In this document: positions 45,730 to 61,839 of the stretch, piece after piece | Position numbering within the stretch: the stretch's first letter is position 1 | How the letters are laid out: each line of letters opens with the position of its first letter | From: Myxococcales bacterium | GTDB taxonomy: Bacteria > Myxococcota_A > Polyangia > Polyangiales > DASUME01 | Length of the DNA: 64,000 nucleotides | NCBI GenBank assembly: GCA_044507075.1 | Contig: JBIQKA010000014.1 | Coordinates: forward strand, 4,388 to 68,387 | Direction of reading: 5' to 3' | The notes under the pieces: model-generated | What the model was told of the DNA's origin: nothing | What the model saw: the letters and a program-made list of their open reading frames with translations, nothing else | Database searches by the model: none | Program-made: the position numbers and the translations under genes

Positions 45730-48279
45730 TCATCCCCCGCAGATCGCCCCGCCGCTCATGCCGAAGCCGAGGCTGTCGCACAGGCCAGGGGCGCCGGTGT
45801 CGATCCCCGCGGTATCGAGTGCACCCATCAACATGCCGTAGCCGCCGTAGGGCGAGAGCGCGCCGCCGAGCGCGTCGTCGAGGATGCCGCAGCCCATCTC
45901 CGCCGCGGGGTTCGTGAAGTCGCCGGCATCGAAGCCGCCGCCCTCGCCCGAGATCACGAGCGTGGCGATGGTCACCATGCGCACCTCCCACTTGGCGAGC
46001 GCCACCCAGCCCCCGACCGAAGCTCCTGCGAGCCCCCCAACCAGGCCCAGGCCGCTGATCATGCGGTTGGCGGCGTCGAACGCCTCGCACGTCTCCGCGG
46101 CACCGCCGCTCCCGTCGGCCAGGATGCCGATCACGGTGCCGGTGGTCTCGTCGATCGCCCAGAACGGCCCGGGCGCGACGGGCACCAGCAGCTGGTACGA
46201 TTGGTTGAAGGGCTGCTCGAGCGCGGCCCACTGCAGGCGCTGATCGGCGGTGAGGTCAGGCTGCGCGCGGGCCCCCCCCGGGTTCACCAGCGTGAGCGGC
46301 GCGCCATCCAGCGCCTCGAGCGTGCTCTCGCCGGTCATCAGCTCCGCTTCCATCACGGCCAGGCTCGCCGTGGAGCGCAAGGTGCGCACGAAGGCGTCGC
46401 GGGGATCGGCGCTCGCCGTCGCGAAGCGCGCGAGCGGGAACAGATCGAGCTCACGGCGGAACGGGGCGCCCAGGCGCGCGCGCTGCACCAGCGTGGCCAC
46501 GCGCAGACCGTCCTCGAACGTGAGCGCCGTGGTCGGATCGCCCTGAAACAGCGGCGGCTGGGCCAAGGGCAGTTTGCCGGGGGTGACGCTGAAGCCCTTG
46601 GCGAGCTCGGCGATCACGCTGTCCGAGTCCTGGCTCTCCACGGCCTCCCATAGCGGCTCGAGCGAGAGCTTGTCGGCGATCCAGTCGTCGAGCAGCATGC
46701 TGGGTGAGGGCGGCGCCGCCTCCACGGCGATCGAGATCCGACCGAGCAACACCGCGCGCACATCTTCCAGCATGTCGCGGGTCACCTCGAGGTCCGCGGT
46801 GGTGGAGCCGCGGTCCTCGGCCAACTGCACCGCGTTCGCCTCGCGGAACTCTGCGGGCACGCTGGTGGACACATCGAACAGGAGCACCACCCTCGGAGGG
46901 GGCGCCTGGTTCTGGACCACCTGAAACGACACCGGCTCTCCGCCCTCGGTGATCGTGAAGGCGTCGGAGGAGAGCGCAGGCACGGAGGAGCCGCCGCTGT
47001 CCACGGCGCTCACGCGCAGGGTGACGTGGGGAAAGGCCGAGGCTTGCGCGCTGGCCGAGATCCGATCCACGCGCGCGACCTGGGTCGGATCGGTCATGGT
47101 CGGGGCCAGCGGGTGACCGTTGACGCTCAGCACGCCCGAGGCTTCGTCCACGGTGTAGTGGTCGCCCTGCACGGTGACCACGTCCCCGCTGATCGCGAGC
47201 GCGTCGCGCTCCTCCTGGGTCATGTCCGGCCCAGCCACGGCGAGCAGCGGCACGAACGAGGTCACGTCCTCGGCGCGCATGCGCAAGAGGGACTCGGTCC
47301 GAACCGGCGGGACGAAGGAGAGGTGGATCTTGCGGCCCACGACCTCTTCGCTCTCGTAGGTGCGCTCCAGCAACGTAAAGCGCTCGAAGGGCGCGTCGGC
47401 GCGCGCAGCCTGCAAGCGCACATACACGTTGGCGGCGGCGTAGGGCCCCGAGGTCGGCGTGGTGCCACCAGTGACGCACCCAGTGCCAAATGGCGCGCTC
47501 TTCGCGAGCGGGTTGGCGAGCACCCACTCTCCTTCCAACTTGACGCGCACGAGGGGGATGTCCTTAAGCGTGAAGTCGAAGGGGGAGGAGAGCTCCGCGG
47601 GCAGCTTGTCGAGCAAGCGCTGTGAGAGCGCCTCCGCGCGCGCGCCCGTCGGATCGATGAGCGTGCGGGGCGCCGGGGGCTTTCCTCCGAGCGCCCTGCG
47701 CCAGCGCGTGTTCTGCGCTTCGCTGAAGGAAATCGGCTCCGGCGCGGGACGCGCGCCGAGCAACATGGTTTCGCCTGTGAGGCAGTCAGGGTCGGCCGCG
47801 CCGCGCACGACCTCCGCCTCGAAGCCCGCGCGCCGGTAGAGCGACACGAGCAGCTCCGCCTTCTCCCGCGGTGTGCCCGCGCCGCCGCGCAGGGTGCCCC
47901 GCAATCCCCAGCGCTGACGATTCAAGACGCCGTCGAAGCCGGATGTGCTGGGCGGATAGGTCGCGATCTGGTCGCGCACGAACAGGTAGAGCTGCTCGGG
48001 ATCGCCCTGCTTCACCAGGGCCTCCGCGCGCGCCACGCGATGATCGGGCTGCATGCGCAACGCCGATTGCACTTCGCGCCAGGCGTCGAAGGGGCTCAGG
48101 ACCTCGGCATCGGGCGCGCCCGCATCAGCGAGTGGTTCACTCGCGGCATCTTCTCCTGCATCGCTGACCACGCCCCCATCCCCATCCTCCGAGGCGCGCC
48201 GCTCGTTTCCACAACCGCTCCCCAGGATCGCGTACATGCTCAGAACTACGAAGAAAGCGCGCAACGCGTCGACCGACAT
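45730..48279 (-). CDS. large (849 aa) lipoprotein, unknown function
   Basis: ATG at 48279 is preceded by GGAGG. Lipobox MYAILGSGCG. Weak transglutaminase-like stretch (REKAELLVSLYRRAGFEAEVVRG, no Cys). VWA/MIDAS-like VVLLFDVSTSV. Gly-rich C-terminus ending GGAICGG. Confidence 0.6.
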   Translation of the reverse strand: MSVDALRAFFVVLSMYAILGSGCGNERRASEDGDGGVVSDAGEDAASEPLADAGAPDAEVLSPFDAWREVQSALRMQPDHRVARAEALVKQGDPEQLYLFVRDQIATYPPSTSGFDGVLNRQRWGLRGTLRGGAGTPREKAELLVSLYRRAGFEAEVVRGAADPDCLTGETMLLGARPAPEPISFSEAQNTRWRRALGGKPPAPRTLIDPTGARAEALSQRLLDKLPAELSSPFDFTLKDIPLVRVKLEGEWVLANPLAKSAPFGTGCVTGGTTPTSGPYAAANVYVRLQAARADAPFERFTLLERTYESEEVVGRKIHLSFVPPVRTESLLRMRAEDVTSFVPLLAVAGPDMTQEERDALAISGDVVTVQGDHYTVDEASGVLSVNGHPLAPTMTDPTQVARVDRISASAQASAFPHVTLRVSAVDSGGSSVPALSSDAFTITEGGEPVSFQVVQNQAPPPRVVLLFDVSTSVPAEFREANAVQLAEDRGSTTADLEVTRDMLEDVRAVLLGRISIAVEAAPPSPSMLLDDWIADKLSLEPLWEAVESQDSDSVIAELAKGFSVTPGKLPLAQPPLFQGDPTTALTFEDGLRVATLVQRARLGAPFRRELDLFPLARFATASADPRDAFVRTLRSTASLAVMEAELMTGESTLEALDGAPLTLVNPGGARAQPDLTADQRLQWAALEQPFNQSYQLLVPVAPGPFWAIDETTGTVIGILADGSGGAAETCEAFDAANRMISGLGLVGGLAGASVGGWVALAKWEVRMVTIATLVISGEGGGFDAGDFTNPAAEMGCGILDDALGGALSPYGGYGMLMGALDTAGIDTGAPGLCDSLGFGMSGGAICGG

Positions 48280-48551
48280 CTGGGATACCTCCAAGAACTG
48301 CCCAAACCTCGCAGACTCCTTCGCGCCCATCAAGCTCGGTGGTGCAGGGCACAGAAGGCCTCGTCCTCGCCCTCCTCTGGGCGCCCGGGCGCTCGAAGGC
48401 GGGGCACGTCGCCTCCCGAACATCTCGCCGACATCTTACGGACACGCACCATCCGCGCGTTCCTCGCGAGGGGCGATCCGCCGCGCGATCGACCCACCAC
48501 GTCCCTGGGACCACGCTCCGCTAAGCCGCGAGGACTTCACGGTTTTTCCTT

Positions 48552-48578
48552 GTCTTACGATTTTTCGAATCGTATGAA
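48552..48578. promoter_or_regulatory. candidate NikR operator (autoregulatory) directly upstream of nikR
   Basis: GTCTTAC-N13-GTATGAA. The larger dyad is TCTTACGATT-tttcg-AATCGTATGA (10-bp arms, 1 mismatch). It ends 9 nt before the nikR ATG. Confidence 0.6.
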
Positions 48579-48586
48579 GCCGCTCC

Positions 48587-48997
48587 ATGAGCGACCTCGA
48601 GCGCGTCAGCGTGACGATCGAGCGGGAGCTGCTGGAGCGCTTCGACCGCTCGATCGAGCAATCGCAGCATCAGAATCGCTCGGAGGCAGTGCGCGATCTG
48701 ATCCGCAGCCGCCTGATCGAAGAAGAGGTGGAGAAGAGCTCAGGCCACCTGATGGGCACGGTGACGCTCGTCTACGACCACACGCAACGCGAGCTCGCCG
48801 ATCGGCTACTCGCCGCGGGCCATCACCACGAACACGTCACGCTCAGCACGCTCCACGTGCACATAGACAGCGTGCATTGCCTCGAGGTCACCGTGCTGCG
48901 GGGCGAGGCGCGAGAGCTCAAACGAGTGGCTGCGCATCTGCTCGGCATGAAGGGAGTCAAGCATGGCAAGCTGGTCCTCACGTCGCTCACGCCGTGA
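48587..48997 (+). CDS. nikR: nickel-responsive transcriptional regulator NikR
   Basis: RHH N-terminus RVSVTIERELLERFD...NRSEAVRDLIR. The C-terminal Ni site HHHEH...LHVHIDSVHC has the HxH-x5-C spacing of E. coli NikR H87/H89/C95. Confidence 0.9.
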   Translation: MSDLERVSVTIERELLERFDRSIEQSQHQNRSEAVRDLIRSRLIEEEVEKSSGHLMGTVTLVYDHTQRELADRLLAAGHHHEHVTLSTLHVHIDSVHCLEVTVLRGEARELKRVAAHLLGMKGVKHGKLVLTSLTP

Positions 48998-49790
48998 GCT
49001 CGAGAGGCTCGCAGGCTTGGCGTGGCTCACGTGCGCCATCTCCTGCGCGGACGCCGAGGAAGCCCGGCGCGTGGAGCTCCCCGTGGTGGTGGACGGCTCG
49101 TGCATGGAGCCGGTGGCCACGAACCTCGGCTATACGGTGCAGGTTCAAGAGGCGCAGCTCGCCGTGAGCGATCTGCAGTTCAGCATCGCGGGCGAGGTGC
49201 ACACCTCCTCGCGCGCGCCTCTCCGCGCGCTGTTTCTCTCCACCGCGCGCGCCCATCCCGGGCACTATACGGGCGGCGAAGTCACGGGCGAGCTCCTCGG
49301 CCGCTTCGTGCTCGACTGGACTTTCGGCCATGGCATCGAGCTCGGCAGGGCCACGCTGCTCGAGGGGCGCTACGACAGCGCCAACATGACGCTCGAGCGT
49401 GCGCAAGCGAGCGACCTGGCCGCCGATAGCCCGTTGCTCGGCCACAGCGCGTGGATCCGCGGGACGGCTGCCAGGGACGGCGCACAGATCCCGTTCGTGG
49501 CCTTGCTAGATGCCCCGCGCGGGCGGCAGATCGTGGGCTTTCCCTTCGATCTCCAGGTGAGCGCCGACACCGACGTCCGGTTGGGCCTGAAGCTATGCAC
49601 CGTCGACCCGCTCGAGCAGGACACCCTCTTCGACGACATCGACTTCGCGACGCTGACCCTGGAGAGCTCCGGGAGCTTCGTTGGGCAAGTCGTGCTCGAG
49701 GAGGCCAGCACGGCCCCGAACCTTTCGGCCTACCAGCGCCTCAAGCGCACGCTGCAGAGCCACGATCACTTCGTCGTTCATCCCCTTTGA
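48963..49790 (+). CDS. lipoprotein LP1, unknown family, His-rich C-terminus
   Basis: The ATG overlaps the nikR 3' end by 35 nt. Signal plus lipobox RRSRRELERLAGLAWLTCAISCA. Contains AHPGHYTGGE and ends QSHDHFVVHPL. Confidence 0.6.
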   Translation: MASWSSRRSRRELERLAGLAWLTCAISCADAEEARRVELPVVVDGSCMEPVATNLGYTVQVQEAQLAVSDLQFSIAGEVHTSSRAPLRALFLSTARAHPGHYTGGEVTGELLGRFVLDWTFGHGIELGRATLLEGRYDSANMTLERAQASDLAADSPLLGHSAWIRGTAARDGAQIPFVALLDAPRGRQIVGFPFDLQVSADTDVRLGLKLCTVDPLEQDTLFDDIDFATLTLESSGSFVGQVVLEEASTAPNLSAYQRLKRTLQSHDHFVVHPL

Positions 49791-49821
49791 AGCGCACGAC
49801 AAGACCAGGAGCACAAGGATC

Positions 49822-50550
49822 ATGAGCGCACCTCGACATGGATGGGTAGCCCTCGGCGTTCTCGCGATCGCCGCCTGCGGGAACGACACGCAGACGGGGG
49901 GCACGGGCACGCTGAAGGTCACGAGCTACGGCGAGGCCTTCATCGAAGAGGGGATCCCCGCCTCGGAGATGGCGGATGGCTGGTCCGTCGCGTTCAGCAA
50001 GTTCGAGGTCCGCATCACGGACGTGAGCGTGAACGGGCTCACGCTCGCGAATCCGCCGGCGGTCGACCTGGTGCAGCCCTCCGCGGGTCAAGGGCAGGAG
50101 CTCGGCAGCCTGGAGGTTCCGTCGGGAAGCTACAGCGACGCGCGCTTCGTCGTCCGCTCGGTTCACGTGGTGGGCAACGCCCAAAAGCACGACACGAAGA
50201 AGGACTTCGATTGGACCTTTTCGGCGCCCATCTCCTACCAGGCTTGCGAGACGACCAACGAGGTCCCCAGGAACGGGGTCGGCGTCTTTGAGATCACGAT
50301 TCACGCCGATCACTTGTTCTACGATAGTTTGGTCAGCGAGGACCCCGCGCTCGGCTTCGATGCGCTCGCCGCGGCCGACACGAACGGCGACGGGGTGGTC
50401 CATCAGGAGGAGCTCACCGCAGCAGACGTCGGCGGGTTCGATACCGGCAACGAGGACATCGCAAACCTCTGGGAGTGGCTGAGCGCGCTGGTGGCCACCC
50501 TCGGCCACGTGGACGGCGAAGGACACTGCCACGCCGAAGCCGCGATGTGA
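49822..50550 (+). CDS. lipoprotein LP2, unknown family, EF-hand-like loop and His/Cys C-terminus
   Basis: Lipobox GVLAIAACGN. Contains DTNGDGVVHQEEL and the C-terminal LGHVDGEGHCHAEAAM. The stop overlaps the receptor start. Confidence 0.65.
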   Translation: MSAPRHGWVALGVLAIAACGNDTQTGGTGTLKVTSYGEAFIEEGIPASEMADGWSVAFSKFEVRITDVSVNGLTLANPPAVDLVQPSAGQGQELGSLEVPSGSYSDARFVVRSVHVVGNAQKHDTKKDFDWTFSAPISYQACETTNEVPRNGVGVFEITIHADHLFYDSLVSEDPALGFDALAAADTNGDGVVHQEELTAADVGGFDTGNEDIANLWEWLSALVATLGHVDGEGHCHAEAAM

Positions 50551-52691
50551 GCGCATCCCGGCACGCGTCCTCGCGCGCGGGTAGGCGCCGCGCGCGCTTT
50601 CTCCCGGCGCTGCTCGGGCTCACGTTGCTCTCTGGGCGAGCCAGGGCGCACGAAGGGGATCCGCCCGCGGCTCCGGCGCGGGCGGAGGAGCGCCCCACGC
50701 CGCCGGCGAGCTTCGAGACCACGCGGCCCACCGCCTACGAAGCGCATGCCGTCGTCACCCGCCAGCGCGCAAAGCCCGCCTCGAGCGCGCACGTGCACCA
50801 GGCCGACGTGGCCTCCGTGCCCATCCGAACCGCGGAGGACGCGCTACGCCTGGTGCCGGGGTTGGTCCTCGTCCAGCACGGCAGCGAAGGCAAGGGGCAA
50901 CAGTACTTCTTGCGTGGCTTCGACGCGGTGCACGGGGCGGACATCGAGCTCACGGTGGAGGACATCCCGATCAACGAGTGGTCGAACATCCACGCCCAGG
51001 GTTACTTGGACGTGGGGTTCGTGATCCCCGAGCTCATCCAAACGCTCGAGGTCGTGAAGGGCCCCTTTTCGCTCGAGCAAGGCGCCTTCGCGATGGCCGG
51101 CAGCGCGCGCTACTGGCTCGGCATCTCCCCCGCCGAGCGCGGCGCGCGGGCCAGCTACACGGTGGGCACCACGGGGCGGCAACGCGTCTTGTTGACCTAC
51201 GCTCCGAAGGACGGTGACGGCAGCGAGTTCGTGGCGGCCGAGGTCGTGAACGACCCATCGTTCGGCCAAAACCGTGAGGCGCGCCGCGCGAACGTGATGG
51301 GGCGGGTGAACCTGATGAACTCCGAGAAGCGGGGCCGTCTTTCGCTCCTGCTCTCCGGTTACGCCGCCAACTTCGGGCTGCCCGGCACGCTGCGCATCGC
51401 CGACGTCGCGCGCGGACGCATGGACTTTTACGACGCCTACTTCCTCGACGGCACCGGCTCCTCGCTGCGCACGCTCGGCGCGCTCCACTACCACCGCGAG
51501 GACGCCCGGACCCGGATCAAAGGGGTGCTCTACGGAGGACTGCGCAGGCTCTCCCTGTTCGACAACTTCACCGGCGACCTCGTCGATCCCGTGCACGGGG
51601 ACTACCGTGATCAGCGCCAGCGCGCCCAGAGCTTCGGAACCCACCTGTTCGTGGACCACGCGCTTGGGCCCGAACTCGGCCTGCTCGCGGGCGCGGGCCT
51701 CACGGGCGACAGGCTGGATCAAAAGGAGCTACGCACCGACGAAGAGGGTGAGCTCGTGGCGCTGCGGCGCGGCCTCGAGGGCGTGCAGCTGCTCGCCTTC
51801 GCGCAGCTTGGGCTGCGTTACCAGCCGACCCGCCTGGTCACCCTGGAAGCAGGCGCGCGCGGCGACCTGGCTCACGCCAATGTGCGCGACGTGCTGCACA
51901 CCCAACGACGCCAGCAGGGAACCGAGGTCGCCTGGTCACCGCGCGCGATGGCCACCGTGCGCGCGCACCCGTTCGTGAAGTTGATGGCCTCCTATGGTCG
52001 CGGCATGCGTCCTCCGGAGGCACGCGCGCTCACCCGCTTCCGGCCGGCCATGCTCGGGATCTCCGAAGAGGACGCCGGCACGGCGCGCTCGCGTTTCACG
52101 CAGTCCCACACCATGGAGCTCGGCGCCAGGGTGCGCGCCGATGCGCGCCTCTCCGGGAGCGCTGCGGGCTTCGCCACGCTGATCGAGCGGGAGTCTCTGT
52201 TCGATCACGTCTCGGGCACGAACTTGGAGCTCAATGGCACCCGCCGCGTGGGCGCCGAGGCGTTGGTCACGGGCCAACCCTGGCCCTTCTTGACCCTCAG
52301 CGGCGATATCACCGGCGTCGACGCACGCTTTCGCGCCTCGGGGAACCGCGTTCCGTTCGCCCCTTGGCTCACGGGCGGCCTTCGTGCCGTGCTGACGCAT
52401 CCATCCGGCACCCGCGCAGGCCTGCGCTTCGTCGCGGTGGCCCCGCGGCCCCTCCCCCACGGCGCACGTGGAGAGCCGCTCTTTTTGCTCGACGCCACGG
52501 CCGGCTACCGCTTTCGCTGGCTCGACGTGTGCCTCGCCCTCGAGAATCTGCTCTTTCGCCAGCTACGCGAGGGCGAGTACCACTTCGCGAGTCACTGGTT
52601 TAGGGACGAGCCGCGGAGCGCCATCCCCACCACGCAGGTCATCGCAGGCCCCCCTTTCAACGCGCGCCTCACGCTCTCGGTGTTTCTGTAG
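50547..52691 (+). CDS. TonB-dependent outer-membrane receptor
   Basis: The GTG overlaps the LP2 stop. Signal ...LLSGRARA. Plug domain IRTAEDALRLVPGLVLVQHGSEGKGQQYFLRGFD...EVVKGPFS. Long beta-barrel region. The last residue is Leu, not Phe. Confidence 0.85.
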   Translation: MSASRHASSRAGRRRARFLPALLGLTLLSGRARAHEGDPPAAPARAEERPTPPASFETTRPTAYEAHAVVTRQRAKPASSAHVHQADVASVPIRTAEDALRLVPGLVLVQHGSEGKGQQYFLRGFDAVHGADIELTVEDIPINEWSNIHAQGYLDVGFVIPELIQTLEVVKGPFSLEQGAFAMAGSARYWLGISPAERGARASYTVGTTGRQRVLLTYAPKDGDGSEFVAAEVVNDPSFGQNREARRANVMGRVNLMNSEKRGRLSLLLSGYAANFGLPGTLRIADVARGRMDFYDAYFLDGTGSSLRTLGALHYHREDARTRIKGVLYGGLRRLSLFDNFTGDLVDPVHGDYRDQRQRAQSFGTHLFVDHALGPELGLLAGAGLTGDRLDQKELRTDEEGELVALRRGLEGVQLLAFAQLGLRYQPTRLVTLEAGARGDLAHANVRDVLHTQRRQQGTEVAWSPRAMATVRAHPFVKLMASYGRGMRPPEARALTRFRPAMLGISEEDAGTARSRFTQSHTMELGARVRADARLSGSAAGFATLIERESLFDHVSGTNLELNGTRRVGAEALVTGQPWPFLTLSGDITGVDARFRASGNRVPFAPWLTGGLRAVLTHPSGTRAGLRFVAVAPRPLPHGARGEPLFLLDATAGYRFRWLDVCLALENLLFRQLREGEYHFASHWFRDEPRSAIPTTQVIAGPPFNARLTLSVFL

Positions 52692-53511
52692 CCGGTGGCG
52701 CAGCGCTCGGCGTCGGGCGCACCACGCGGCTAGACACCGCGAACACGACGAACAACACCATCACCACCGCGAGACCGAACCCGAGCTCTCGGCCTTCCGT
52801 CCAGCCCTCCGCAGCCGGCCACAGGTACCTGGCGGCCCCCAACATCGCCACCAACAAAGACAGCGCGCCGACCGCCCCGCTCATCCAGCGCGAGGCGATG
52901 CGCGCCCGCTCGTCGGCCCGCTTGAGAAGGCTCGCGATCCAGAGCCCGTTTACCGAGTCGATCAGCACCATCCCGAGCGCGAAAGCGAGCGCGAGACCGA
53001 GCGCCCCGCCGCCGCCGCCCACGCGGCTGGCGCTCAGCGCGAACAGGGAGGCCAGGCTCATCGTGTCGAAGGAGAGCGCAAAAAGCGCCCCAAGGAGCGC
53101 GGGGGCGCCCGGGTGGCAGCTATGGGTCACGCGCTGGAACCAACCGGCACGGAGCCCCACCATGGGCACGCCCTCGCCGCGCGGGGTTTCCCAGACCGCA
53201 CGCAGATTCAAGATGCCGAGCGCCGAAAGCGCAGCCATCGAGATCGCCACACCCAGATCTTCGAACCAGCTCGGCACGAGAAAGGAGCTCGAGAGCGCCC
53301 CGGCCAGGATGGCGACCAGGCTCACCACCGCACCGTGACCGGCCGAGAACAGGAGCCCGCACCAGCGCGCGCTGCTTGGACGATGTCCGATCGTGCGAAC
53401 ACGGGTCAACCCATCGATGGCGACGAGGTGATCGGCGTCGAGTCCGTGTTTGACTCCCATCACGAACGCGAGCGCAAGCAACGCAAGCCAGTCGTTCATT
53501 CCGTTGGTCAT
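52669..53511 (-). CDS. NiCoT family high-affinity nickel/cobalt permease (HoxN/NixA/UreH type)
   Basis: TM2 signature KHGLDADHLVAIDG (HxxxxDH). Also LFSAGHG, LSFDTMS and GMVLIDSVNG blocks. The 3' end overlaps the receptor 3' end by 23 nt. Confidence 0.85.
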   Translation of the reverse strand: MTNGMNDWLALLALAFVMGVKHGLDADHLVAIDGLTRVRTIGHRPSSARWCGLLFSAGHGAVVSLVAILAGALSSSFLVPSWFEDLGVAISMAALSALGILNLRAVWETPRGEGVPMVGLRAGWFQRVTHSCHPGAPALLGALFALSFDTMSLASLFALSASRVGGGGGALGLALAFALGMVLIDSVNGLWIASLLKRADERARIASRWMSGAVGALSLLVAMLGAARYLWPAAEGWTEGRELGFGLAVVMVLFVVFAVSSRVVRPTPSAAPPATETPRA

Positions 53512-53590: not shown

Positions 53591-53617
53591 GTCTTACGGT
53601 TTCCACGTTCATCTTAC
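53591..53617. promoter_or_regulatory. direct repeat of the nikR-operator half-site upstream of the NiCoT gene
   Basis: GTCTTAC-N13-ATCTTAC. It has the same 7-mer and the same 13-nt spacing as the nikR site, but in direct orientation. It lies 80-106 nt upstream of the permease start. Confidence 0.4.
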
Positions 53618-53962
53618 CGGTCGCGCCTTTCGTGCGGCCCGCGCGTGCGTCATGTTCCCTCCTCTTTGCATCACCAGCGCGCGCGTAAATCCGCATCGAT
53701 CGCGGAAAGCCCGTAGACCATCCACCCCACAGGTCGGACGGTCAGAATGCATTTGCGACACCTACCGCTCCCGAAGCGTGCGCTCGTTCTCCTCCGCGCG
53801 CCCGAACACGAAGCGCGACGCACGTCTCTTCTTTTCGCTCTTTGCTGATGCCTGCGCTCAGACGCCGTAGTACGGTCTGTGGGTCGCCGCGCTCATGGAA
53901 GCGCGCAGCGACGAGAGCCCTCGCCTGAGCGCGCCCACGGGCGCGAGCACAGGAGGTTGTCC

Positions 53963-54880
53963 ATGGCAGAGCGCGTCGCCGCGAGCGAAGGCACCGTCGT
54001 CGACTTCATCCGCTCCACGCTGCGTGGCGTTGGGCAGATCGTCTTTCAAGGCCATGCGGGCACCGGCCTCTTCTTTCTCGTGGGCATCGGCTTCACGTCG
54101 CGCATCCTCTTGCTCGGCGCCGTGCTCGGAGCGCTCGTCTCCACGCTCACGGCGCGTCTACTCCGTTACGATGCGCAGGAGATCACCCAGGGGTTGTTCG
54201 GCTTCAACGCCACGCTCGCGGGCATCGCGCTCCCGTTCTATTTGGATCCCGGCTCGTGGATCACCTGGGCGCTCGTCGTCGTGGGCGCTGTGCTCGCCAC
54301 CGTGCTCACCCGCCTGCTCCGCCAGCACCTGTCCTGGCCCAGCTACACGGCGGGCTTCGTCATCTCCACCTGGCTCCTGCTCCTCTTGATCCACGGAATC
54401 GAGGGAACGGCCATCGATCACAAGCCGGAACCTTCGGGTTCGCTCCACGCGCCCAACAGCTTCGTGTCCGCCTTCCTGGCCGGAGAAGCCGAGATCATGT
54501 TCGGCTCGAGCACATTCACGGGGATCATGTTCCTGCTGGGGATCGCCCTCAGCAACCGCAAACACGCCCTGCTCACGCTGCTCGGCACCGTGGTGGGGAC
54601 GGGCCTCGCCTACTACCACAACGACCCCGCAAACACGATCCGCCTCGGAATCTATGGCTACAACGCCGCGCTGGCCGCGGTGGGCATCGTCCTATGGCGC
54701 GAGTCGCTCCTACTCTCGATCTTGGCCGCGGTGGTCTCGGTGCCGATGACCGAGTTCTTCCCCAAGGTGCTCGGCATTCCTCCGCTCACTGCCCCATTCG
54801 TGGCCGCCTGTTGGTTCGTGATCGCCGTCGGCGGCCTGGACCGCTACTTCAGCCACGTCGCCGGAGCGCACCATGCCTAG
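53963..54880 (+). CDS. urea transporter (UT/Yut family)
   Basis: ATG is preceded by AGGAGG. LRGVGQIVFQ...GLFFLVGI, GLFGFNATLAGIAL, GIYGYNAALAAVG and PPLTAPFV blocks are typical of UT channels. Confidence 0.85.
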   Translation: MAERVAASEGTVVDFIRSTLRGVGQIVFQGHAGTGLFFLVGIGFTSRILLLGAVLGALVSTLTARLLRYDAQEITQGLFGFNATLAGIALPFYLDPGSWITWALVVVGAVLATVLTRLLRQHLSWPSYTAGFVISTWLLLLLIHGIEGTAIDHKPEPSGSLHAPNSFVSAFLAGEAEIMFGSSTFTGIMFLLGIALSNRKHALLTLLGTVVGTGLAYYHNDPANTIRLGIYGYNAALAAVGIVLWRESLLLSILAAVVSVPMTEFFPKVLGIPPLTAPFVAACWFVIAVGGLDRYFSHVAGAHHA

Positions 54881-55050
54881 AGCGCATTTCACAAGTCCCC
54901 GCACCGCCTCGCGGGCGGCGCGGCGTCTGATCCGCCGACCTCGGACACTGCGACAATACCCCAGCATTGCCTCGGTCCGAGGTCGACGGATCCGACGCCG
55001 CGGCGCTCCACGATCCGGCGCGGGGATCTATGAAATGCGCTCTAGGGCAT
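54873..55050. repeat. ~178-nt imperfect palindrome filling the urea transporter-ureA spacer
   Basis: The outer arms CCTAGAGCGCATTTCA (54876-54891) and TGAAATGCGCTCTAGG (55031-55046) are perfectly complementary, and 4 more bp pair with a 1-nt bulge. Inner complementary segments: TCCCCGC/GCGGGGA, CGCGGCGTC/GACGCCGCG, GATCCG.CGACCTCGGAC/GTCCGAGGTCG.CGGATC. Confidence 0.85.
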
Positions 55051-55075
55051 CCGGCCCTGCACATGAGGAATCACC

Positions 55076-55378
55076 ATGCACCTGACGCCACGTGAGATCG
55101 AGAAGATAATGGTGTACTCGCTGGCCGAGATCGCGCTCAAGCGCAGGGCCAAGGGGATCAAGCTGAATCACCCGGAGGCGATGGCCGTGATCTGCGCGGC
55201 CGCCATGGATGGCGCGCGCGAGGGTCGCACCGTGGAAGAGGTGATGGCCTCGTCCGCTCAGGTCTTGAAGCTGAGCGACGTGATGGAGGGCGTGGCCGAC
55301 ATGATCCCCTTCGTGCAACTCGAGGCCGTGTTCACGGATGGCAGCCGCCTGATCACCGTCCACCAACCGATCCGCTGA
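55076..55378 (+). CDS. ureA: urease subunit gamma
   Basis: [35 protein letters not shown]...FPDGSRL-type full-length match (100 aa). Confidence 0.95.
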
Positions 55379-55408
55379 CTTCGCAACGCGCGAGCATAGG
55401 AGCACACC

Positions 55409-55822
55409 ATGACCAAGAAGGATGGCGAGGCACGGGTGCCGGTCGGGGGCCTGCTGCTGCGAGAAGAGGAGATCGAGCTCAACGCGGGGCGCGAGGTCGT
55501 CACCCTCAAGGCCCGCAACACCGGTGATCGTCCGATCCAGGTCGGGTCCCACTATCACTTCTTCGAGGTCAACCGTTTCCTCGAGTTCGACCGCGCGCGC
55601 GCGTTCGGGATGCGCATGGACATCCCCGCCACCACGGCGGTGCGGTTCGAACCCGGCGATGAAAAGACCATCAACCTCGTGCCCTACGGCGGCAAGCGCT
55701 ACGCGTACGGCTTCAACAACCTCGTGGACGGTTGGGTGGGTGGTTCGCCCACGACCTACCGCCCCAACTTCACGGAGGCGATGAAGCGCGCCGAGGAGCG
55801 CGGCTTCAAGTCCAAGAAGTAG
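55409..55822 (+). CDS. ureB: urease subunit beta
   Basis: [46 protein letters not shown]...LVPYGG. Confidence 0.95.
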
Positions 55823-55904
55823 TTCCGTCCAGGATGACTGGTTGTTCAGCTCGCGGGCGCAGCTGCCCGCCCCGAACGTTCGCCAGCACGGAGGCGAGGT
55901 TTCC

Positions 55905-57623
55905 ATGTCCAAGATCTCACGCAGGCAATACGCAGACCTCTACGGCCCCACCACGGGAGACAAGATCCGCCTCGGCAACACGGACCTCTACGTCGAGATC
56001 GAGCGCGACCTTCGCGTCTACGGTGACGAGGCCGTGTACGGCGGCGGCAAGACCATGCGCGACGGGGGAGGCATCGAAAACCGCCTGACCTCGGCAGCGG
56101 GCGCGCCGGACCTACTGATCACCAACGTCACGATCATCGACCCCTACCTCGGCGTCATCAAGGCCGACGTCGGCATGAAGGATGGAAAGATCGCAGGGGT
56201 CGGCAAGGCGGGGAACCCCAACACCATGGAGGGCGTGACGCCGGGCCTGGCAGTGGGGCCCGCGACCGACGCGATCTCCGGGGAACACATGATCCTCACG
56301 CCGGCAGGCATGGACGCGCACGTGCACTACATCTCACCCCAGCAGGTGTACGCCGCGCTCTCGAATGGCATCACCACGCTGTGGGGAGGCGGCGTTGGCC
56401 CCACCGACGGCACCAATGGCACCACCATCACCTCGGGCCCACAAAACCTCGCCTGGATGCTCCAGGCCGCGGAGGGCCTGCCGATCAACTTCGGCTTCTT
56501 GGGCAAAGGCAACTCGAGCGGCAAGGGCCCCTTGGTGGAGCAGCTCATCGGGGGCGCCGCCGGCTTCAAAGTTCACGAGGACTGGGGCACCACACCGAGC
56601 GCAATTCGCAGCGCGCTCTCCGTCGCAGACGAATACGACGTCCAGGTGTGCATCCATACCGATACGCTGAACGAGGCCGGCTACGTGGAGGACACCGTCG
56701 CCGCCATGGACGGGAGAACCATCCACACTTACCACTCGGAGGGCGCGGGCGGCGGCCACGCGCCGGACATCCTGCGCGTGTGCGCGGAGCCCAACGTCCT
56801 GCCGAGTTCGACCAATCCGACGCTGCCCTTCGGGGTCAATTCGATGGCCGAGCTCTTCGACATGATCATGGTCTGTCACAACCTGAACCCGAAGGTCCGC
56901 TCCGACGTGGAGTTTGCCGAGAGCCGCGTACGCGCGGAGACCATCGCCGCCGAGAGCGTTTTGCACGACATGGGCCTCATCTCCATCATCTCGAGCGACT
57001 CCCAGGCCATGGGTCGGGTCGGCGAGACGTTCATGCGCGCCATTCAGACGGCTGACACCATGAAGAAGGCACGAGGGAAGCTGCCCGAAGACGCTCCCGA
57101 CAACGACAACTTTCGGGTCCTGCGCTTTCTTTCGAAGGTCACCATCAACCCCGCCATCGCGCAGGGCATCGGGCACGTGTTGGGATCCATCACGCCCGGC
57201 AAGCTCGCCGACCTCGTGCTCTGGGAGCCCGCGTTTTTTGGCGCCAAACCCAAGATGGTGATCAAGGGTGGTCTGATCAATTGGGCGAGCACGGGCGACC
57301 CGAACGCGTCCCTGCCGACCCCGCAGCCCGTGATGTATCGCCCCATGTTCGGAGGCTTCGGCTTAGCCATGCCCTCCACCTGCGTGAGCTTCGTGTCGCG
57401 GGCCGCCTACGACAACGGCATCAAGGAGAAGCTCGGCTTGCAGCGCAAGGTGATCCCAGTGCTTGGCACGCGCACGCTCGGCAAGCAGAACATGGTGCGC
57501 AACACGACCCTCGCGAAGATCGAGGTCGATTCGCAGACCTTCGCGGTGAAGGTCGACGGCGTGCACGCCACGGTGCCGCCCGCGAAGTCGCTCTCGTTGG
57601 GCCAACTCTATTTCTTTAGCTGA
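55905..57623 (+). CDS. ureC: urease subunit alpha
   Basis: Start [28 protein letters not shown] with GGAGG upstream. Contains [37 protein letters not shown] and MVCHNL. Confidence 0.95.
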
Positions 57624-57702
57624 TCCCATTCAGCTCATCTGTGCGCTTCCCTCGCGGGAGGACGCGGCCGATGTCATCTCGCTGTAGCTCGCTGTCTCGC
57701 TC

Positions 57703-57721
57703 GCGGGTCGAACCGACCCGC
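57703..57721 (+). other. GC-rich hairpin in the ureC-porin spacer
   Basis: GCGGGTCG-aac-CGACCCGC (8-bp stem), with no T-tract. Confidence 0.25.
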
Positions 57722-57777
57722 TCCGACCGCAGTACTGGGCGTAGGTCATCGACCCCCTCACTCCCTCGGCACGCGAG

Positions 57778-59526
57778 GTGGAAGGCTCCATGTTCACCCT
57801 GGAACTGGCTGACGATCGCCAATCAACGCACACGACCTCGCATACGCCATCTGGCCACGGAGCGTGGCGCTCACGGCTGCGGCTCGCCTCGGCGATGCTG
57901 TGGATCGCCGGCTCGTCCGTCGCGCACGCCCAGGAACTTCCTCCACCACCTCCCACGCTCGAGGTGGTCCCCGTCGTTCCCGCGCCGGCCCCTGAAACTC
58001 CTCCCGGGCCGCCTGCCCCCTCCACGGCCGAGTTGGAGGCCGAGATCGCGCGGTTACGTCAGCAGAGCGACGCATCCCGAGCGGAGCTGCACCGGCTCGA
58101 ACAGGAGCTCGGCGCACTGCGTGCGCGCCAGGAGGTCCATGAGACCTCCACCGCGCGCGCGCAAAAGCCGCCCCCCGGCACCGTGAGCGGCGTGCCCACC
58201 CGCTACCATTCCGGCGCCTTTGGCCCAAGCACGCCCGTCGCGCCCGACGCCGACCACCAACCCATCGTCCAGGCGCGCTACGGGTACAATGGCGATGCGA
58301 CGGGGCCGCTCGGCGGCGGCGGCCATTTCAAGGCCGCTACTGCGGACGACGAATTCAGCGTCGCAGTGACCGCCCAGATCACCGTGGACGGCACGTTCTT
58401 CAACCACAACAAGATGCCCACGGACGAGCAGGGCTTCAACATCCCGTTCGCCCGCCTCTATCTGTACGGAAACGTCACCAAGATGGTGAGCTATCAGGTG
58501 GGCGTGCAGGGCTTCTTGGGCACGTTCAACCTGCTCGACGCGTTCTTCAGCTGGCACCTCTACAAGAACCTGACCCTGCGCTTCGGCAAGGGCCTCACAC
58601 CGCCGCTCTACGAGTACTTCTCGTTCAACCCGGCGCTCGAACCGGTGATCACGAACTCGCCACTCTTTCAGTTGGCTGCCAAGCGCCCGATCGGCGTCAT
58701 GCTCACAGGCACGCTGGCCAAGGAGCGCCTCGGGTTCTGGGCGGGGGTGAGCAACAGCGGAACGAGCCTGTTCGGCAACCTCGACAACAACGTCGACTTC
58801 AACACCCACGTCGAATTCAACCCCTTCCGGGGAGAGCGCTGGAAGAACGGCTTTCTGGAGGGCCTCGGCCTGGGCGCCGGCTTCTCGGTCGGCAAGCAAC
58901 GCTACGCGCTCGATCAAACGAGCATCGCCTTCACCAACAATGGCGAGGCCACCACCAACCCGAGCTTCGTCACCGTGGTGGGCATCCCCTGGTACGTCTA
59001 CAACGATGACGTGCGGACCGATGGTCAGCGCTTCCGCCTGGCGCCGCACCTTTACTACTTCGGCCGGGTGAGCCTGCTCGGCGAGTACATGTTTCATCGC
59101 CGCGACCTCACGAACGGCACCCGCGGCGGCATGTCGACGCAGCACGCGTATTACGTCAACGGTTCGGTCTGGCTCACCGGCGAGCGCGACTTCAAGGGCA
59201 CCGCCTTTCAGGCCTATGCCACCGTGGACCCCAGACGCCCCCTCGCGCGTGGAAGCCGGGGTCCAGGAGCGTTTCAGCTCGCGGGACAATGGTCCCAGTT
59301 CTTTGCCGGGGACCGCGACATCGAGCGCGGCTTGGTGGATGACACGCGCTCGACGACGCGCATGGACAACGTGATGGCGGGCCTCAACTGGTGGCCCAAT
59401 AAGCACGTCCGCATTACCGTGAACTACGTAAAGACCTGGTTCGACGAGGCGATCCCGATCCGCAGCCGTGGACCGAATCTGTCCTCGTATCAGACGGCGT
59501 GGTTCCGCTTTGCCCTGTTCCTCTGA
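57778..59526 (+). CDS. OprO/OprP-like (Porin_O_P family) outer-membrane porin with N-terminal coiled coil
   Basis: Signal ...AMLWIAGSSVAHA. Coiled coil AELEAEIARLRQQSDASRAELHRLEQELGALRARQ. Barrel blocks FNIPFARLYLYGNV, LLDAFFSWHLYKNLTLRFGKGLTPPLYEYF, RPIGVMLTG, GFWAGVSNSG. The start is uncertain. Confidence 0.7.
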   Translation: MEGSMFTLELADDRQSTHTTSHTPSGHGAWRSRLRLASAMLWIAGSSVAHAQELPPPPPTLEVVPVVPAPAPETPPGPPAPSTAELEAEIARLRQQSDASRAELHRLEQELGALRARQEVHETSTARAQKPPPGTVSGVPTRYHSGAFGPSTPVAPDADHQPIVQARYGYNGDATGPLGGGGHFKAATADDEFSVAVTAQITVDGTFFNHNKMPTDEQGFNIPFARLYLYGNVTKMVSYQVGVQGFLGTFNLLDAFFSWHLYKNLTLRFGKGLTPPLYEYFSFNPALEPVITNSPLFQLAAKRPIGVMLTGTLAKERLGFWAGVSNSGTSLFGNLDNNVDFNTHVEFNPFRGERWKNGFLEGLGLGAGFSVGKQRYALDQTSIAFTNNGEATTNPSFVTVVGIPWYVYNDDVRTDGQRFRLAPHLYYFGRVSLLGEYMFHRRDLTNGTRGGMSTQHAYYVNGSVWLTGERDFKGTAFQAYATVDPRRPLARGSRGPGAFQLAGQWSQFFAGDRDIERGLVDDTRSTTRMDNVMAGLNWWPNKHVRITVNYVKTWFDEAIPIRSRGPNLSSYQTAWFRFALFL

Positions 59527-59580
59527 GGGAGGACCGCGGCGAGCATCGGCTGTGCGCCCTCGAACACAAGGAAGAATGAG

Positions 59581-60213
59581 ATGAAGAAGATCACGCGCAT
59601 CGGAGTGGGCGGCCCCGTGGGCTCCGGCAAGACGGCTGTCATCGAGGCGATCACGCCGCTCTTGCTCGACCTCGGCGTCCGCGTCCTGATCGTGACCAAC
59701 GACGTGGTCACCACCGAGGACGCCAAGCACGTTCGGCGCACGTTGAAGGGGGTGTTGGTGGAGGAGCGCATCCTCGGCGTGGAGACGGGAGCGTGCCCGC
59801 ACACTGCGGTGCGCGAGGATCCGAGCATGAACCTGGCGGCCGTGGAGGACATGGAGAGGCGTTTTCCGGACAGCGACCTCGTACTCATCGAGAGCGGCGG
59901 CGACAACCTCACCCTCACCTTCAGCCCCGCGCTCGTCGACTACTTCATCTATGTGATCGACGTGGCCGCGGGCGACAAGATCCCACGCAAGAACGGCCCG
60001 GGCATCTCACAGTCCGACATCCTCGTGATCAACAAGACCGACCTCGCTCCCTACGTGGGCGCGAGCCTCGACGTCATGCGTGACGACTCCAAGATGATGC
60101 GAGGCACCAAGCCCTTCGTATTCACGAATTGCAAGGCCGGCGAAGGGATCTCCGAGCTGGTCGCGCTGATCCGTCAAGAGGTGCTGTTCGACCTCAAGCT
60201 CAAGTCCGCCTGA
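59581..60213 (+). CDS. ureG: urease accessory GTPase UreG
   Basis: P-loop [22 protein letters not shown] (CPH nickel site), ESGGDNL and NKTDLAP. Confidence 0.95.
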
Positions 60214-60227
60214 AGAAGCGCTCCGTC

Positions 60228-61136
60228 ATGCAAGCGACCGCCCCGGAACTGCTCCCCTACCTTGCGGAGCCGCCGCAGCTACCGAGCGGCGCGCCTGGGA
60301 AGAACGGGTATCTGAAGCTCGGCTTCGAGCGACAGGGCGAGCGCACCATCTTGCGCGAACTGGAGCGCCGCGTTCCGCTCCTGGTGCAGCAGGCGCTCTA
60401 CTGGGACGAGGAGTTTTTGGGCCTTCCCTGCGTGGCGATCATCTCGAACGCGGGCGGCATCGTGCAGGGCGATCGCTACACCATCGAGATCGAGCTGGGG
60501 GCTGAGGCGCAAGCCCATGTCACCACCCAGGCGGCCACCAAGATCCACGTGATGGATCACAACTATGCCGCGCAGACGCAGCACGTCCGGCTCGGCGAGG
60601 GTGCCTACCTCGAGTACCTGCCCGATCCGATGATCCCCCATCGCCATACGCGCTTTCTCATGCACACCACGCTGACCATGGCGCCCAACGCCACCCTGTT
60701 CTACGCGGAGATCCTGTCGGCGGGCCGCAAGCACCACGGGGAGGGCGAGCTCTACCAGTTCGATCTCTTCTCGTCGCTGGTGCGCGCGGAGCGGGAGGAC
60801 GGGCGAGAGCTCTTCGTCGAAAAATTCGTGGTCGAGCCGGGCCAGAGCCCGGTGCGTCAGCTGGGCGTGGTCGGGCCGTACGACGTGTTCGCCAATGCGC
60901 TGTTGCTCACACCGAGAGCATACGCCGACGCTATCTTCGAGGAGCTGGGCGCGGGCTTCGACGCGCGCGCAGAGCTCGCGAGCGGCGCAAGTCGCCTCCC
61001 CAACGACGCCGGGCTCGTGTTCAAGGTGCTGGGTATGGAGACCGAGCCCGTGCGCGCGAGGCTGCGCGAATTTTGGTCCCTCGTCCGCACCCACGTCACC
61101 GGCAAGGGCTTGATGAAGGAGCCCCCATGGCGCTGA
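60228..61136 (+). CDS. ureD: urease accessory protein UreD (UreH)
   Basis: Start MQATAPE at 60228. G.L.L.FER.G.RT, SNAGGIVQGDRY.IEI and TTQAATKI blocks typical of UreD. Confidence 0.8.
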   Translation: MQATAPELLPYLAEPPQLPSGAPGKNGYLKLGFERQGERTILRELERRVPLLVQQALYWDEEFLGLPCVAIISNAGGIVQGDRYTIEIELGAEAQAHVTTQAATKIHVMDHNYAAQTQHVRLGEGAYLEYLPDPMIPHRHTRFLMHTTLTMAPNATLFYAEILSAGRKHHGEGELYQFDLFSSLVRAEREDGRELFVEKFVVEPGQSPVRQLGVVGPYDVFANALLLTPRAYADAIFEELGAGFDARAELASGASRLPNDAGLVFKVLGMETEPVRARLREFWSLVRTHVTGKGLMKEPPWR

Positions 61137-61179
61137 GGGCGCGGACCCTCCTCGCACATTCATCCGAAGGAGCCAGCCC

Positions 61180-61839
61180 ATGATTCTGATCGAAGCGATA
61201 CTCGGCAACCTGCGCTGCGAGGAATGGAAAGAGAAGCTCGAGGGCGCCACGCTGGACGAGCTGAGCCTCGACCAGTGGCAGGCACAAAAGACGCGCCTGC
61301 GCACGACCACGCGCGACGGTCACGAGATCGCGCTCTCGCTCGACCGCAGGAGCCACCTGCACGATGGCGACATCCTGCACTGGAGTCCCAAGGACAGGCG
61401 CGCGATCGTCGTGCGTATCCAGCTCCAGGATGTGATGGTCGTCCACCTCGACCAGGTCGACAAAGCGCCCGCGAGCACGCTCGCTCAAACCTGCGTGGAG
61501 CTCGGGCACGCCCTGGGCAACCAGCACTGGCCCGCCGTGGTCAAAGACAGCAAGATCTACGTGCCGCTCACGGTCGATCGCAAGGTCATGGCGTCGGTGA
61601 TGAAGACCCATGCCTTCGAGGGCATCCACTATGAGTTCGTGGACGGCGCCGAGGTGATCCCCTTCCTCGCACCGCACGAGGCGCGCCGGCTGTTCGGCGG
61701 CGCCGACTCCACACCGCACAGCCACGTTCATGGCGATCCCATGCACGCGCACGAGGGGATGAGCGAGCCCCATGCCCATCCGGGCGGCCACGAACCGCAC
61801 ACCCACGCGGCTTCTTCGCCTGCCCAGGCGGGACGCTAG
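61180..61839 (+). CDS. ureE: urease accessory metallochaperone UreE with His-rich tail
   Basis: LGHALGNQHWPAV (GNRH-type motif). C-terminal HSHVHGDPMHAHEGMSEPHAHPGGHEPHTH. Confidence 0.85.
   Translation: MILIEAILGNLRCEEWKEKLEGATLDELSLDQWQAQKTRLRTTTRDGHEIALSLDRRSHLHDGDILHWSPKDRRAIVVRIQLQDVMVVHLDQVDKAPASTLAQTCVELGHALGNQHWPAVVKDSKIYVPLTVDRKVMASVMKTHAFEGIHYEFVDGAEVIPFLAPHEARRLFGGADSTPHSHVHGDPMHAHEGMSEPHAHPGGHEPHTHAASSPAQAGR

Follow-up and report, generated by a model that had tools for sequence, protein, structure and literature searches.

A conserved lipoprotein pair beside a TonB-dependent receptor in Myxococcota and its possible part in NikR-controlled nickel uptake

What do two lipoproteins of no known family contribute when their genes stand between that of a nickel-responsive repressor and that of a TonB-dependent receptor? 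The question is raised by a stretch of 64,000 nucleotides (nt) on contig JBIQKA010000014.1 of a Myxococcales bacterium (hereafter the window; G+C content ~68%; all positions refer to the whole stretch), in which nikR, the two lipoprotein genes LP1 and LP2, and the receptor gene follow each other on the same strand. A first-pass annotation of the locus had proposed that LP1 and LP2 capture nickel, or a nickel chelate, for the receptor. The proposal we arrive at, with a probability of roughly 45%, is that of a NikR-repressed operon for nickel uptake across the outer membrane, whose two lipoproteins have an MbnP-like fold and accept nickel beside the receptor, probably on the periplasmic side. 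The four genes are as follows:

48587–48997, forward strand: nikR, first gene of the operon, nickel-responsive repressor.
48963–49790, forward strand: LP1, lipoprotein of 275 amino acids (aa).
49822–50550, forward strand: LP2, lipoprotein of 242 aa.
50547–52691, forward strand: TonB-dependent receptor with GTG start, Plug domain and TonB_dep_Rec barrel.

The genes are tightly chained, with coordinates and overlaps as described in the first-pass annotation. The LP1 ATG (48963) lies within nikR, resulting in a 35-nt overlap, LP2 follows LP1 after a gap of 31 nt with AGGAG preceding its ATG, and the LP2 stop codon overlaps the receptor start by 4 nt (read as GTGA). The repressor is a full-length NikR orthologue, scoring 160.8 bits on NCBIfam NF003381 (cut-off 105) and matching Pfam NikR_C (E 6.5e-26) and RHH_1. 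Its H-x-H-x5-C motif, contained in LHVHIDSVHC, presumably corresponds to the nickel site H87/H89/C95 of E. coli NikR. A sigma-70 promoter scan returned 0 sites, and terminator-like sites were found at background level only.

Relatives of LP2 were present in 174 genomes in a scan that used one genome per species, and 80 of these loci were fetched. They derive from Polyangia, Nannocystaceae, Enhygromyxa, Plesiocystis, Paraliomyxa and Bradymonadales/Lujinxingia, and from some metagenome-assembled genomes (MAGs) labelled Bdellovibrionales or 'Proteobacteria'. In 80/80 loci, LP2 directly follows LP1, and a receptor orthologue adjoins the pair in 75/80, arranged as LP1-LP2-receptor (56 loci), receptor-LP1-LP2 (8 loci) or with a divergent receptor (11 loci). 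Four of the five exceptions are located at contig ends, and only one locus (L007) genuinely lacks the receptor. LP1, LP2 and the receptor gene form a conserved three-gene module of Myxococcota; the linkage of the pair to the receptor, which the first-pass annotation had taken from the window, is obligate by this neighbourhood census. Unbiased clustering of the neighbours in the 80 loci yielded kinase and histidine-kinase families in up to 18 loci (clusters 3 and 5), which are unspecific. The most common specific neighbour was nikR, followed by MbnH/MbnP, and no further recurrent family was found. One of the modules without nikR is located in an uncultured Polyangiaceae MAG (L080, CAZNZA010000008.1; no overlap with the window), where LP2 is 47% identical and the module adjoins a divergent two-component system of histidine kinase and response regulator.

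Neither lipoprotein could be assigned to a family, in agreement with the first-pass annotation. Pfam and NCBIfam scans gave no match for LP1 and nothing above threshold for LP2, i.e., sub-threshold matches to DUF4382 and EF-hand only, and the same scans of 42 LP1 and 42 LP2 homologues revealed no family above threshold. Family profiles searched against PDB sequences found nothing for LP1 and weak EF-hand matches to calmodulin only for LP2. Both families are large, with 647 LP2 homologues in a word-indexed search and, among 1.84 billion cluster representatives, 895 LP1 representatives at E ≤ 1e-3 and 220 at E ≤ 1e-30. The public names of homologues are 'hypothetical protein', 'putative lipoprotein' or 'EF-hand domain-containing protein', and full-text literature searches gave no description of the LP1/LP2 family.

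LP1 and LP2 had been read by eye as distant paralogues. BLASTP between the two proteins gave no significant match (E 0.25). Comparison of the two family alignments with hhalign resulted in a probability of 96.8% (E 2.8e-10, 173 columns) and paired exactly the segments that had been aligned by eye. As a signal peptide alone can score weakly (31 for LP2 versus MbnP), the comparison was repeated on alignments trimmed past the lipobox, again with a high probability (91.3%, E 9.3e-7, 146 columns). In addition, the LP1 hidden Markov model (HMM) reaches LP2 proteins in a local database, down to E 3e-7. The HMM-HMM comparison that the first-pass annotation had suggested thus bears out its view: judged by their profiles, LP1 and LP2 are distant paralogues, and in the profile alignment the AHPGH loop appears as a segment inserted in LP1.

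Conservation of individual residues was determined for LP1 and LP2 from the 80 loci together with the window (n = 81). The following features stand out, the EF-hand-type loop by its fit to the canonical pattern and all others by conservation among orthologues:

49044–49046, forward strand: LP1 lipobox cysteine C28, kept in 81/81 orthologues.
49194–49202, forward strand: LP1 E78-V-H80, within AGEVH.
49251–49265, forward strand: LP1 A97-H98-P99-G100-H101, opening AHPGHYxGGEVTGEL.
49761–49769, forward strand: LP1 C-terminal H267-D268-H269.
49876–49878, forward strand: LP2 lipobox cysteine C19, kept in 80/81 orthologues.
50302–50313, forward strand: LP2 H161-A-D163-H164.
50377–50412, forward strand: LP2 EF-hand-type loop DTNGDGVVHQEE, residues 186–197.
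50503–50529, forward strand: LP2 C-terminal G228-H229-V-D231-G-E233-G-H235-C236.

With a signal peptide and a near-invariant cysteine in a lipobox that mostly reads L-[ASG]-[AG]-C, LP1 and LP2 are, by sequence, real lipoprotein genes, as first annotated, and lipidation is predicted for both. The ligand-rich tails to which the first-pass annotation had drawn attention are conserved in 76–80 of the 81 orthologues, comprising H267 (80/81) and D268 (76/81) of the HDH motif in LP1, and H229 (80/81), E233 (80/81), H235 (78/81) and C236 (79/81) of GHVDGEGHC in LP2. The strongest motifs had gone unmentioned. In LP1, these are AGEVH (E78 75/81, H80 76/81) and AHPGHYxGGEVTGEL, whose H98, P99, G100 and H101 are each found in 81/81. 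In LP2, they are YGExFIEEGIP (E38 and E42), DGW (D52 and W54), C142 and HADH (H161, D163 and H164), all residues named being present in 81/81. The tails are, on this conservation, only half of larger candidate metal sites.

The first-pass annotation had further noted an EF-hand-like loop in LP2. Its 12 residues, D186-x-N-x-D190-G-x-V-x-x-x-E197, satisfy the canonical pattern D-x-[DN]-x-[DNS]-G-x-[ILV]-x-x-x-E in full, and the loop is conserved (D186 81/81, D190 80/81, E197 80/81). It is a single loop and not a paired EF-hand domain, and Pfam scores are low, with 13.8 bits for LP2 versus a gathering score of 25.9 and weak EF-hand_5 matches in 26 of 42 members.

A degenerate copy indicates which of these residues belong together. 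Locus L075 holds a further LP2-like gene (L075:11734–12606) that is not paired with an LP1 gene; its neighbours are a YtkA-like gene and an MbnH gene, the latter lacking an adjacent canonical MbnP. This copy carries H161Q, H164R, H229F and H235R together, yet both C142 and C236 are retained, as is much of its EF loop. With the four His lost jointly and both Cys kept, the His behave like a single functional unit and the Cys pair like a separate structural one, probably a C142-C236 disulfide as far as the sequence tells.

AlphaFold2 models were built on the family alignments and compared to the PDB with Foldseek. Both models are mostly beta with short C-terminal helices and were predicted with good scores (LP2: predicted local distance difference test (pLDDT) 91.4, predicted template modelling score (pTM) 0.83; LP1: pLDDT 89.7, pTM 0.81). 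The sole poorly defined part of LP1 is residues 80–105, which include H80, H98 and H101, with a pLDDT of 55–70 for AHPGH; in a model, this would be expected if the His loop orders upon metal binding. For both models independently, the best PDB match was 7L6G, i.e., MbnP of Methylosinus trichosporium. For LP1, it was the only significant match (E 3.7e-4 to 1e-3, probability 0.99–1.00, template modelling (TM) score 0.36–0.40; next match E 0.075), and for LP2 it ranked first with E 1.8e-3, a probability of 0.87 and a TM score of 0.32–0.34. The structure search advised in the first-pass annotation therefore did not place the proteins in a known non-metal family, the nearest fold being that of a copper protein. 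MbnP, which pairs with the di-haem enzyme MbnH, binds copper via His, Met and a kynurenine derived from a WxW Trp (PMC11951088), and its genes typically adjoin those of MbnT-like TonB-dependent receptors (PMC3621798, PMC9601215).

These results also bear on the idea that LP1 and LP2, rather than trafficking metal, assist the receptor in a structural or regulatory role such as assembly, gating or signalling, and use their His for folding or sensing only. The predicted disorder of the LP1 His loop would agree with such a role, and an assembly factor would show equally obligate synteny. However, each paralogue combines three to four invariant His with acidic residues, and the degenerate L075 copy lost its His in concert, both of which are typical of a functional metal site. 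As the nearest fold is, in addition, that of a metal-binding protein, we judge an accessory role very improbable.

Membership of LP1 and LP2 in MbnP itself (TIGR04052/PF20243) was considered and rejected. No HMM match was obtained for the two proteins, even at E ≤ 1, nor any among the 42 + 42 homologues, whereas the true MbnPs of the same loci reached 189–224 bits on TIGR04052. A local MbnP HMM gave noise on LP2 (E 0.28 or worse; 1101 proteins). The MbnP alignment has invariant W188 and W190, whereas LP1 lacks an invariant Trp and LP2 carries W54 (in DGW) and W131 (in WxF) and no WxW; the kynurenine site is absent as well. The invariant C73, C136, C225, C248, C288 and C295 of the MbnP alignment, and with them the conserved Cys of the four-Cys motif, are not shared either, the mature LP1 having no conserved Cys and the mature LP2 the aforementioned two. 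Finally, the partner MbnH is missing from the window and from 76/80 loci. Because LP1 and LP2 fall outside MbnP by every one of these sequence comparisons, we treat them as new families with an MbnP-like fold, for which remote homology to MbnP is plausible from the models. The exceptions with regard to MbnH are L075 and three loci (L012, L046 and L057) that also hold a canonical MbnP. These three share the operon MbnP-MbnH-LP1-LP2-receptor, with MbnH scoring 465–489 bits on TIGR04039, and L012 has a CopA-type ATPase upstream, giving the order CopA-MbnP-MbnH-LP1-LP2-receptor (L012:4170–12987). Apparently, MbnP-fold proteins of the copper type and of the nickel type occupy a single receptor locus there.

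The link to nickel extends beyond the window. NikR regulons consist mainly of nickel uptake genes, and nikR was found beside the module in 15/80 other loci, 14 times upstream as in the window and once downstream of the receptor, which gives 16/81 with the window counted. The nikR-linked loci hold a consensus operator, GTGTTACGAA-N7/8-TTCGTAACAC, 38–92 nt upstream of nikR, a palindrome that we take to belong to the GTGTTAC-N13/14-GTAACAC class of NikR sites known from comparative genomics. The window has a corresponding element:

48552–48578, forward strand: putative NikR operator, supported by its inverted repeat and matrix score.

It reads GTCTTACGAT-N7-ATCGTATGAA, has 10-nt arms that are 90% complementary, and ends 9 nt before the nikR ATG, i.e., at −35, the usual position in nikR-linked loci. 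Promoter regions were scored with a half-site matrix trained on 13 sites from other loci, and 2259 random 400-nt windows served as background (maximum 14.5 bits, 99.9th percentile 12.7). The window operator, which lies outside the training set, scored 16.1 bits and thereby exceeded all 2259 background windows, so that 48552–48578 can be called a putative NikR operator on sequence grounds. The sites scored in L006, L012, L018, L025, L029 and L045 were likewise absent from the training. L006 reached 22.8 bits and L012 17.4 bits. Two loci without nikR, L018 (37.8 bits) and L025 (30.8 bits), have a site directly before LP1. The sites of L029 (9.4 bits) and L045 (9.1 bits) are weaker. In Plesiocystis pacifica SIR-1 (L040), the NikR box is perfect. 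A wider nickel link, as anticipated in the first-pass annotation, is thus found in 15/80 further loci with nikR and in NikR-type operators, some of them in loci without the repressor gene.

Several further elements were noticed beside these sites. Everted half-sites (GTAACAC-N14-GTGCTAC) lie directly before LP1 in two loci without nikR (L001 ~6637–6664 and L021 ~7466–7493), and L054 and L049 carry extra tandem half-sites beside the full operator. In L045, where nikR is located downstream of the receptor, the 9.1-bit site before LP1 is an AT-rich palindrome, GTAATAATAAT-N6-ATTGTTATTAC (L045:9108–9135), for which a Fur- or Zur-type box is an equally good reading. When the regions before NikR-free modules were searched, in a crude way, for some other palindrome common to them, none emerged, which is a weak negative, as the positive control was invalid.

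The receptor matches Plug PF07715 (E 1.1e-14) and TonB_dep_Rec PF00593 (E 1.8e-17), both above the cut-offs; among solved structures, it has no close relative and matches only the plug of CirA (E 4e-6). In 58/58 full-length orthologues, the plug residues H111, H129 and H149 are invariant, in the context QHGxxGKG...RGFDAxHGxD...NExSNxH, and the same applies to several acidic residues and to D553-H554 and H697 of the barrel. The invariant His may mark a metal-ion path, and we infer that these residues would fit the direct handling of a metal ion rather than of a large chelate.

Downstream of the receptor, the window encodes a potential acceptor and a potential consumer of nickel:

52669–53511, reverse strand: NicO/HoxN-type nickel/cobalt permease of the inner membrane, identified by Pfam NicO, TIGR00802 and an HGLDADH motif.
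53879–62553, forward strand: urea transporter and urease cluster, identified by Pfam scans and translated open reading frames.

The NicO-like gene converges on the receptor gene, the two sharing 23 nt at the 3' end of the latter. Its product is short (280 aa) and matches Pfam NicO (E 4e-12) and TIGR00802 (E 1e-16), both below the curated cut-offs and far below those of the NiCoT family; the HGLDADH motif fits HX4DH, which we take to be the NiCoT signature. The urease cluster is complete and has the order urea transporter, ureA, ureB, ureC, porin-like gene, ureG, ureD, ureE and ureF. The transporter matches Pfam UT (E 1.8e-60), further Pfam matches in the cluster are Porin_O_P, UreG/cobW, UreD, UreE and UreF, and ureA, ureB and ureC were named from their translations without a family scan. 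Urease is the likely nickel consumer in this genome. A second full NikR site was not found before the NicO-like gene or the urease cluster, the search giving a half-site only. This half-site, GTCTTACGG at 53591–53599, precedes the NicO-like gene, repeats the left operator half found before nikR and might be a weak NikR half-site; TCTTAC recurs 21 nt further on (~53612–53617), forming a direct repeat and not a palindrome. The porin-like gene (57778–59526, forward strand), located between ureC and ureG, encodes a 582-aa Porin_O_P-like outer-membrane protein, possibly a channel for urea or anions that is co-expressed with urease.

The proposed mechanism would run as follows. In nickel-replete cells, Ni-loaded NikR would bind the palindrome at 48552–48578 and keep the operon off, and under nickel scarcity the nikR-LP1-LP2-receptor operon would be expressed. 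The receptor would then carry Ni(II), free or loosely chelated, across the outer membrane, with the three invariant His of its plug along the way. At the periplasmic face, LP1 and LP2 would sit by the receptor as lipid-anchored beta-sandwich proteins, draw the ion out of the channel and take it at their invariant His-based clusters, for which E78, H80, H98, H101, H267 and D268 in LP1, and H161, D163, H164, H229, E233 and H235 in LP2 are the candidate ligands. LP2 would be stabilised by a Ca-binding EF loop and the C142-C236 disulfide. Finally, a permease of the inner membrane, in the window the neighbouring NicO-type protein, would receive the ion, which would then feed the urease encoded nearby. 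Nickel binding, the residues used, the disulfide, the periplasmic location and the direction in which the ion moves, up to its delivery to NicO, are inferred parts of this scheme. A more specific version, in which the MbnP fold is a general receptor-coupled metal acceptor with metal-specific branches, and LP1 and LP2 are its cofactor-independent, His-based nickel branch, a lipid-anchored, heterodimeric relay that draws free Ni(II) from a dedicated TonB-dependent receptor and hands it to permeases, appears doubtful to us.

The periplasmic face is favoured because MbnP, the nearest relative in structure, is periplasmic, and because the pair can be encoded in one operon with MbnP and MbnH, the c-type haems of MbnH implying the periplasm. 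The first-pass annotation had instead placed LP1 and LP2 on the cell surface, where they would capture nickel or a nickel chelate outside and deliver it to the receptor. Lipoproteins encoded with TonB-dependent receptors are often exposed ligand catchers, a Ca-binding loop and a disulfide would suit an extracellular protein, and one LP2 member weakly matches HmuY. Furthermore, the residue at position +2 of the lipobox is G, S, D or A and never K. In Myxococcus lipoprotein sorting, K at +2 leads to retention in the inner membrane, so that the pair is predicted to be anchored in the outer rather than the inner membrane, a point on which the surface version can draw as well. Against it stand the periplasmic location of MbnP as the only structural relative, the three loci in which one operon joins the module to MbnP and to MbnH, a haem-c enzyme expected in the periplasm, and the lack of a known or detectable surface-export determinant in LP1/LP2. 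We therefore consider capture at the surface unlikely. What is supported of the original idea are the unclassified paralogues, their ligand motifs, the receptor linkage and the nickel link; nothing points to the cell surface as their site of action.

Several observations weigh against nickel uptake by MbnP-fold partners as the function of the module. The superposition on MbnP has a root-mean-square deviation of 8–11 Å and a TM score of just 0.32–0.40, and the sequence profiles add no support, hhalign versus a 34-sequence MbnP alignment giving 3% for LP1 and 15% for LP2, the latter match covering the signal peptide only. The window operator is degenerate, with 14/20 arm positions matching and a weak right arm. 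A nikR gene or NikR box is present in only ~20–25% of modules, and neighbour-joining of concatenated LP1 + LP2 placed all NikR-linked modules in one group of ~50, including the window; the second group of ~31 loci, mostly Nannocystaceae-like and often with a divergent receptor, shows no NikR signal. With about three quarters of the modules lacking a detectable NikR link, nickel specificity is unproven for the family as a whole. TonB and ExbBD are not conserved neighbours, and tblastn revealed no matches to NicO, the urea transporter or urease adjoining the module in the 80 loci. The linkage to urease, one of the nickel genes to be looked for near homologues according to the first-pass annotation, consequently did not hold; outside the window, neither NicO nor urease ever adjoins the module. 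Conservation is confined to the three genes, and the urease link is specific to this genome. Finally, the four loci with MbnP/MbnH or MbnH beside the module, L012 with CopA as well, could mean copper.

The last point leads to another reading, in which the cargo is copper, cobalt, zinc or a metallophore complex stripped by LP1/LP2, and the NikR link is a lineage-specific re-wiring of a generic cassette for metal import. It can draw on the resemblance of the fold to Cu-binding MbnP, on the adjacent MbnP-MbnH and CopA, and on the majority of modules without NikR signal; His, Asp and Cys sites are not nickel-specific, and the ligand residues are identical in the NikR-linked and NikR-free groups (n = 81). 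Against it, the NikR-like box of L012 (17.4 bits) occupies the spacer from mbnH to LP1, so that even there the LP1-LP2-receptor unit looks nickel-regulated, and nikR is the commonest specific neighbour of the module. LP1 and LP2 contain no Met-rich or Cys-rich Cu(I) motif and no WxW, Rfam riboswitches, including the cobalamin and NiCo types, were found neither in the window nor in 14 sampled NikR-free loci, and the window also holds NicO and urease. We assign a low probability to another cargo, and nickel remains our preferred reading for the operon in the window.

Two genes of the window stand apart from this module. Directly upstream of nikR, on the reverse strand, lies a gene for an 897-aa secreted protein without a Pfam match (45730–48423). 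Unrelated to the nickel locus, the gene at 8983–9675 on the reverse strand encodes a DUF1775 (YcnI-like) protein (E 7e-15), in which the signal peptide is followed by HVS; the resulting N-terminal His is presumably of the kind seen in copper-binding YcnI.

Nickel passage through the outer membrane and the periplasm is little understood outside Helicobacter. The module offers two new protein families whose candidate metal sites are sharply defined, a cognate receptor whose plug has an invariant His triad, and NikR as a clear handle on regulation, and since culturable Myxococcota carry it, with Plesiocystis pacifica SIR-1, Enhygromyxa salina and Lujinxingia vulgaris as candidates, a metal acceptor inside a TonB-dependent gate becomes directly testable. 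It would also extend the MbnP fold beyond copper and kynurenine chemistry and gives a basis for naming several hundred 'hypothetical lipoproteins'. If the nickel relay is true, a step of periplasmic nickel import has gone unrecognised in >170 Myxococcota species, and the MbnP-MbnH-LP1-LP2-receptor operons serve copper and nickel via one gate. The LP1-LP2-receptor module should be of solid interest to those studying metal trafficking.

Compared to known systems, the module combines familiar elements. NikA and CntA share the proposed role of a nickel-controlled periplasmic acceptor of nickel or a nickel chelate for an inner-membrane transporter; however, they are soluble cluster-C solute-binding proteins of ABC importers with an unrelated fold, and no ABC transporter is present here. 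In HmuY-HmuR, TbpB-TbpA, BtuG-BtuB and SusD-SusC, a lipoprotein gene likewise lies beside its receptor gene and is co-inherited obligately, but HmuY, TbpB, BtuG and SusD are surface catchers of haem, transferrin, B12 and glycans, respectively, with folds unrelated to the MbnP-like fold of LP1/LP2. Among sequence families, DUF4382, for which we know of no function, matches LP2 residues 56–139 below its gathering score of 25 (E 2.2e-4, 21.9 bits), with weak matches in 8/42 LP2 and 1/42 LP1 homologues, and covers the first beta-sandwich only. Helicobacter FrpB4 and FecA3 are NikR-repressed TonB-dependent nickel importers, and in H. pylori they share TonB-driven nickel import, NikR control and urease supply with the proposed module. 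To our knowledge, neither these nor other nickel receptors have been reported to work with a lipoprotein partner of their own. FrpB4, FecA3, Bll6948, Daro_3944 and Rgel01002199 are listed as nickel receptors in the literature (PMC11247825). The receptor found here resembles solved receptors at the level of the plug only and, unlike FrpB4 and FecA3, belongs to Myxococcota. Closest in architecture are MbnP, MbnH and MbnT of the methanobactin and 'metallo-mystery pair' operons, where a secreted beta-sandwich metal protein is likewise encoded beside a TonB-dependent receptor, and MbnP homologues of Myxococcota also carry a lipobox, like LP1 and LP2. MbnP is, however, one protein with a His/Met/kynurenine site (PMC11951088), whereas LP1 and LP2 are two paralogues with candidate His/Asp clusters. 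It is also linked to copper, whereas the LP1/LP2 operon is predicted to be under NikR. The suggestion that the module is without precedent has thus to be given up, as NikR-repressed nickel receptors and a receptor with a dedicated secreted metal partner (MbnT/MbnP) are already known separately. What appears to be new is the combination of both features, in two protein families and as paired paralogues, together with His-cluster sites on an MbnP-like scaffold and the breadth of the module in Myxococcota.

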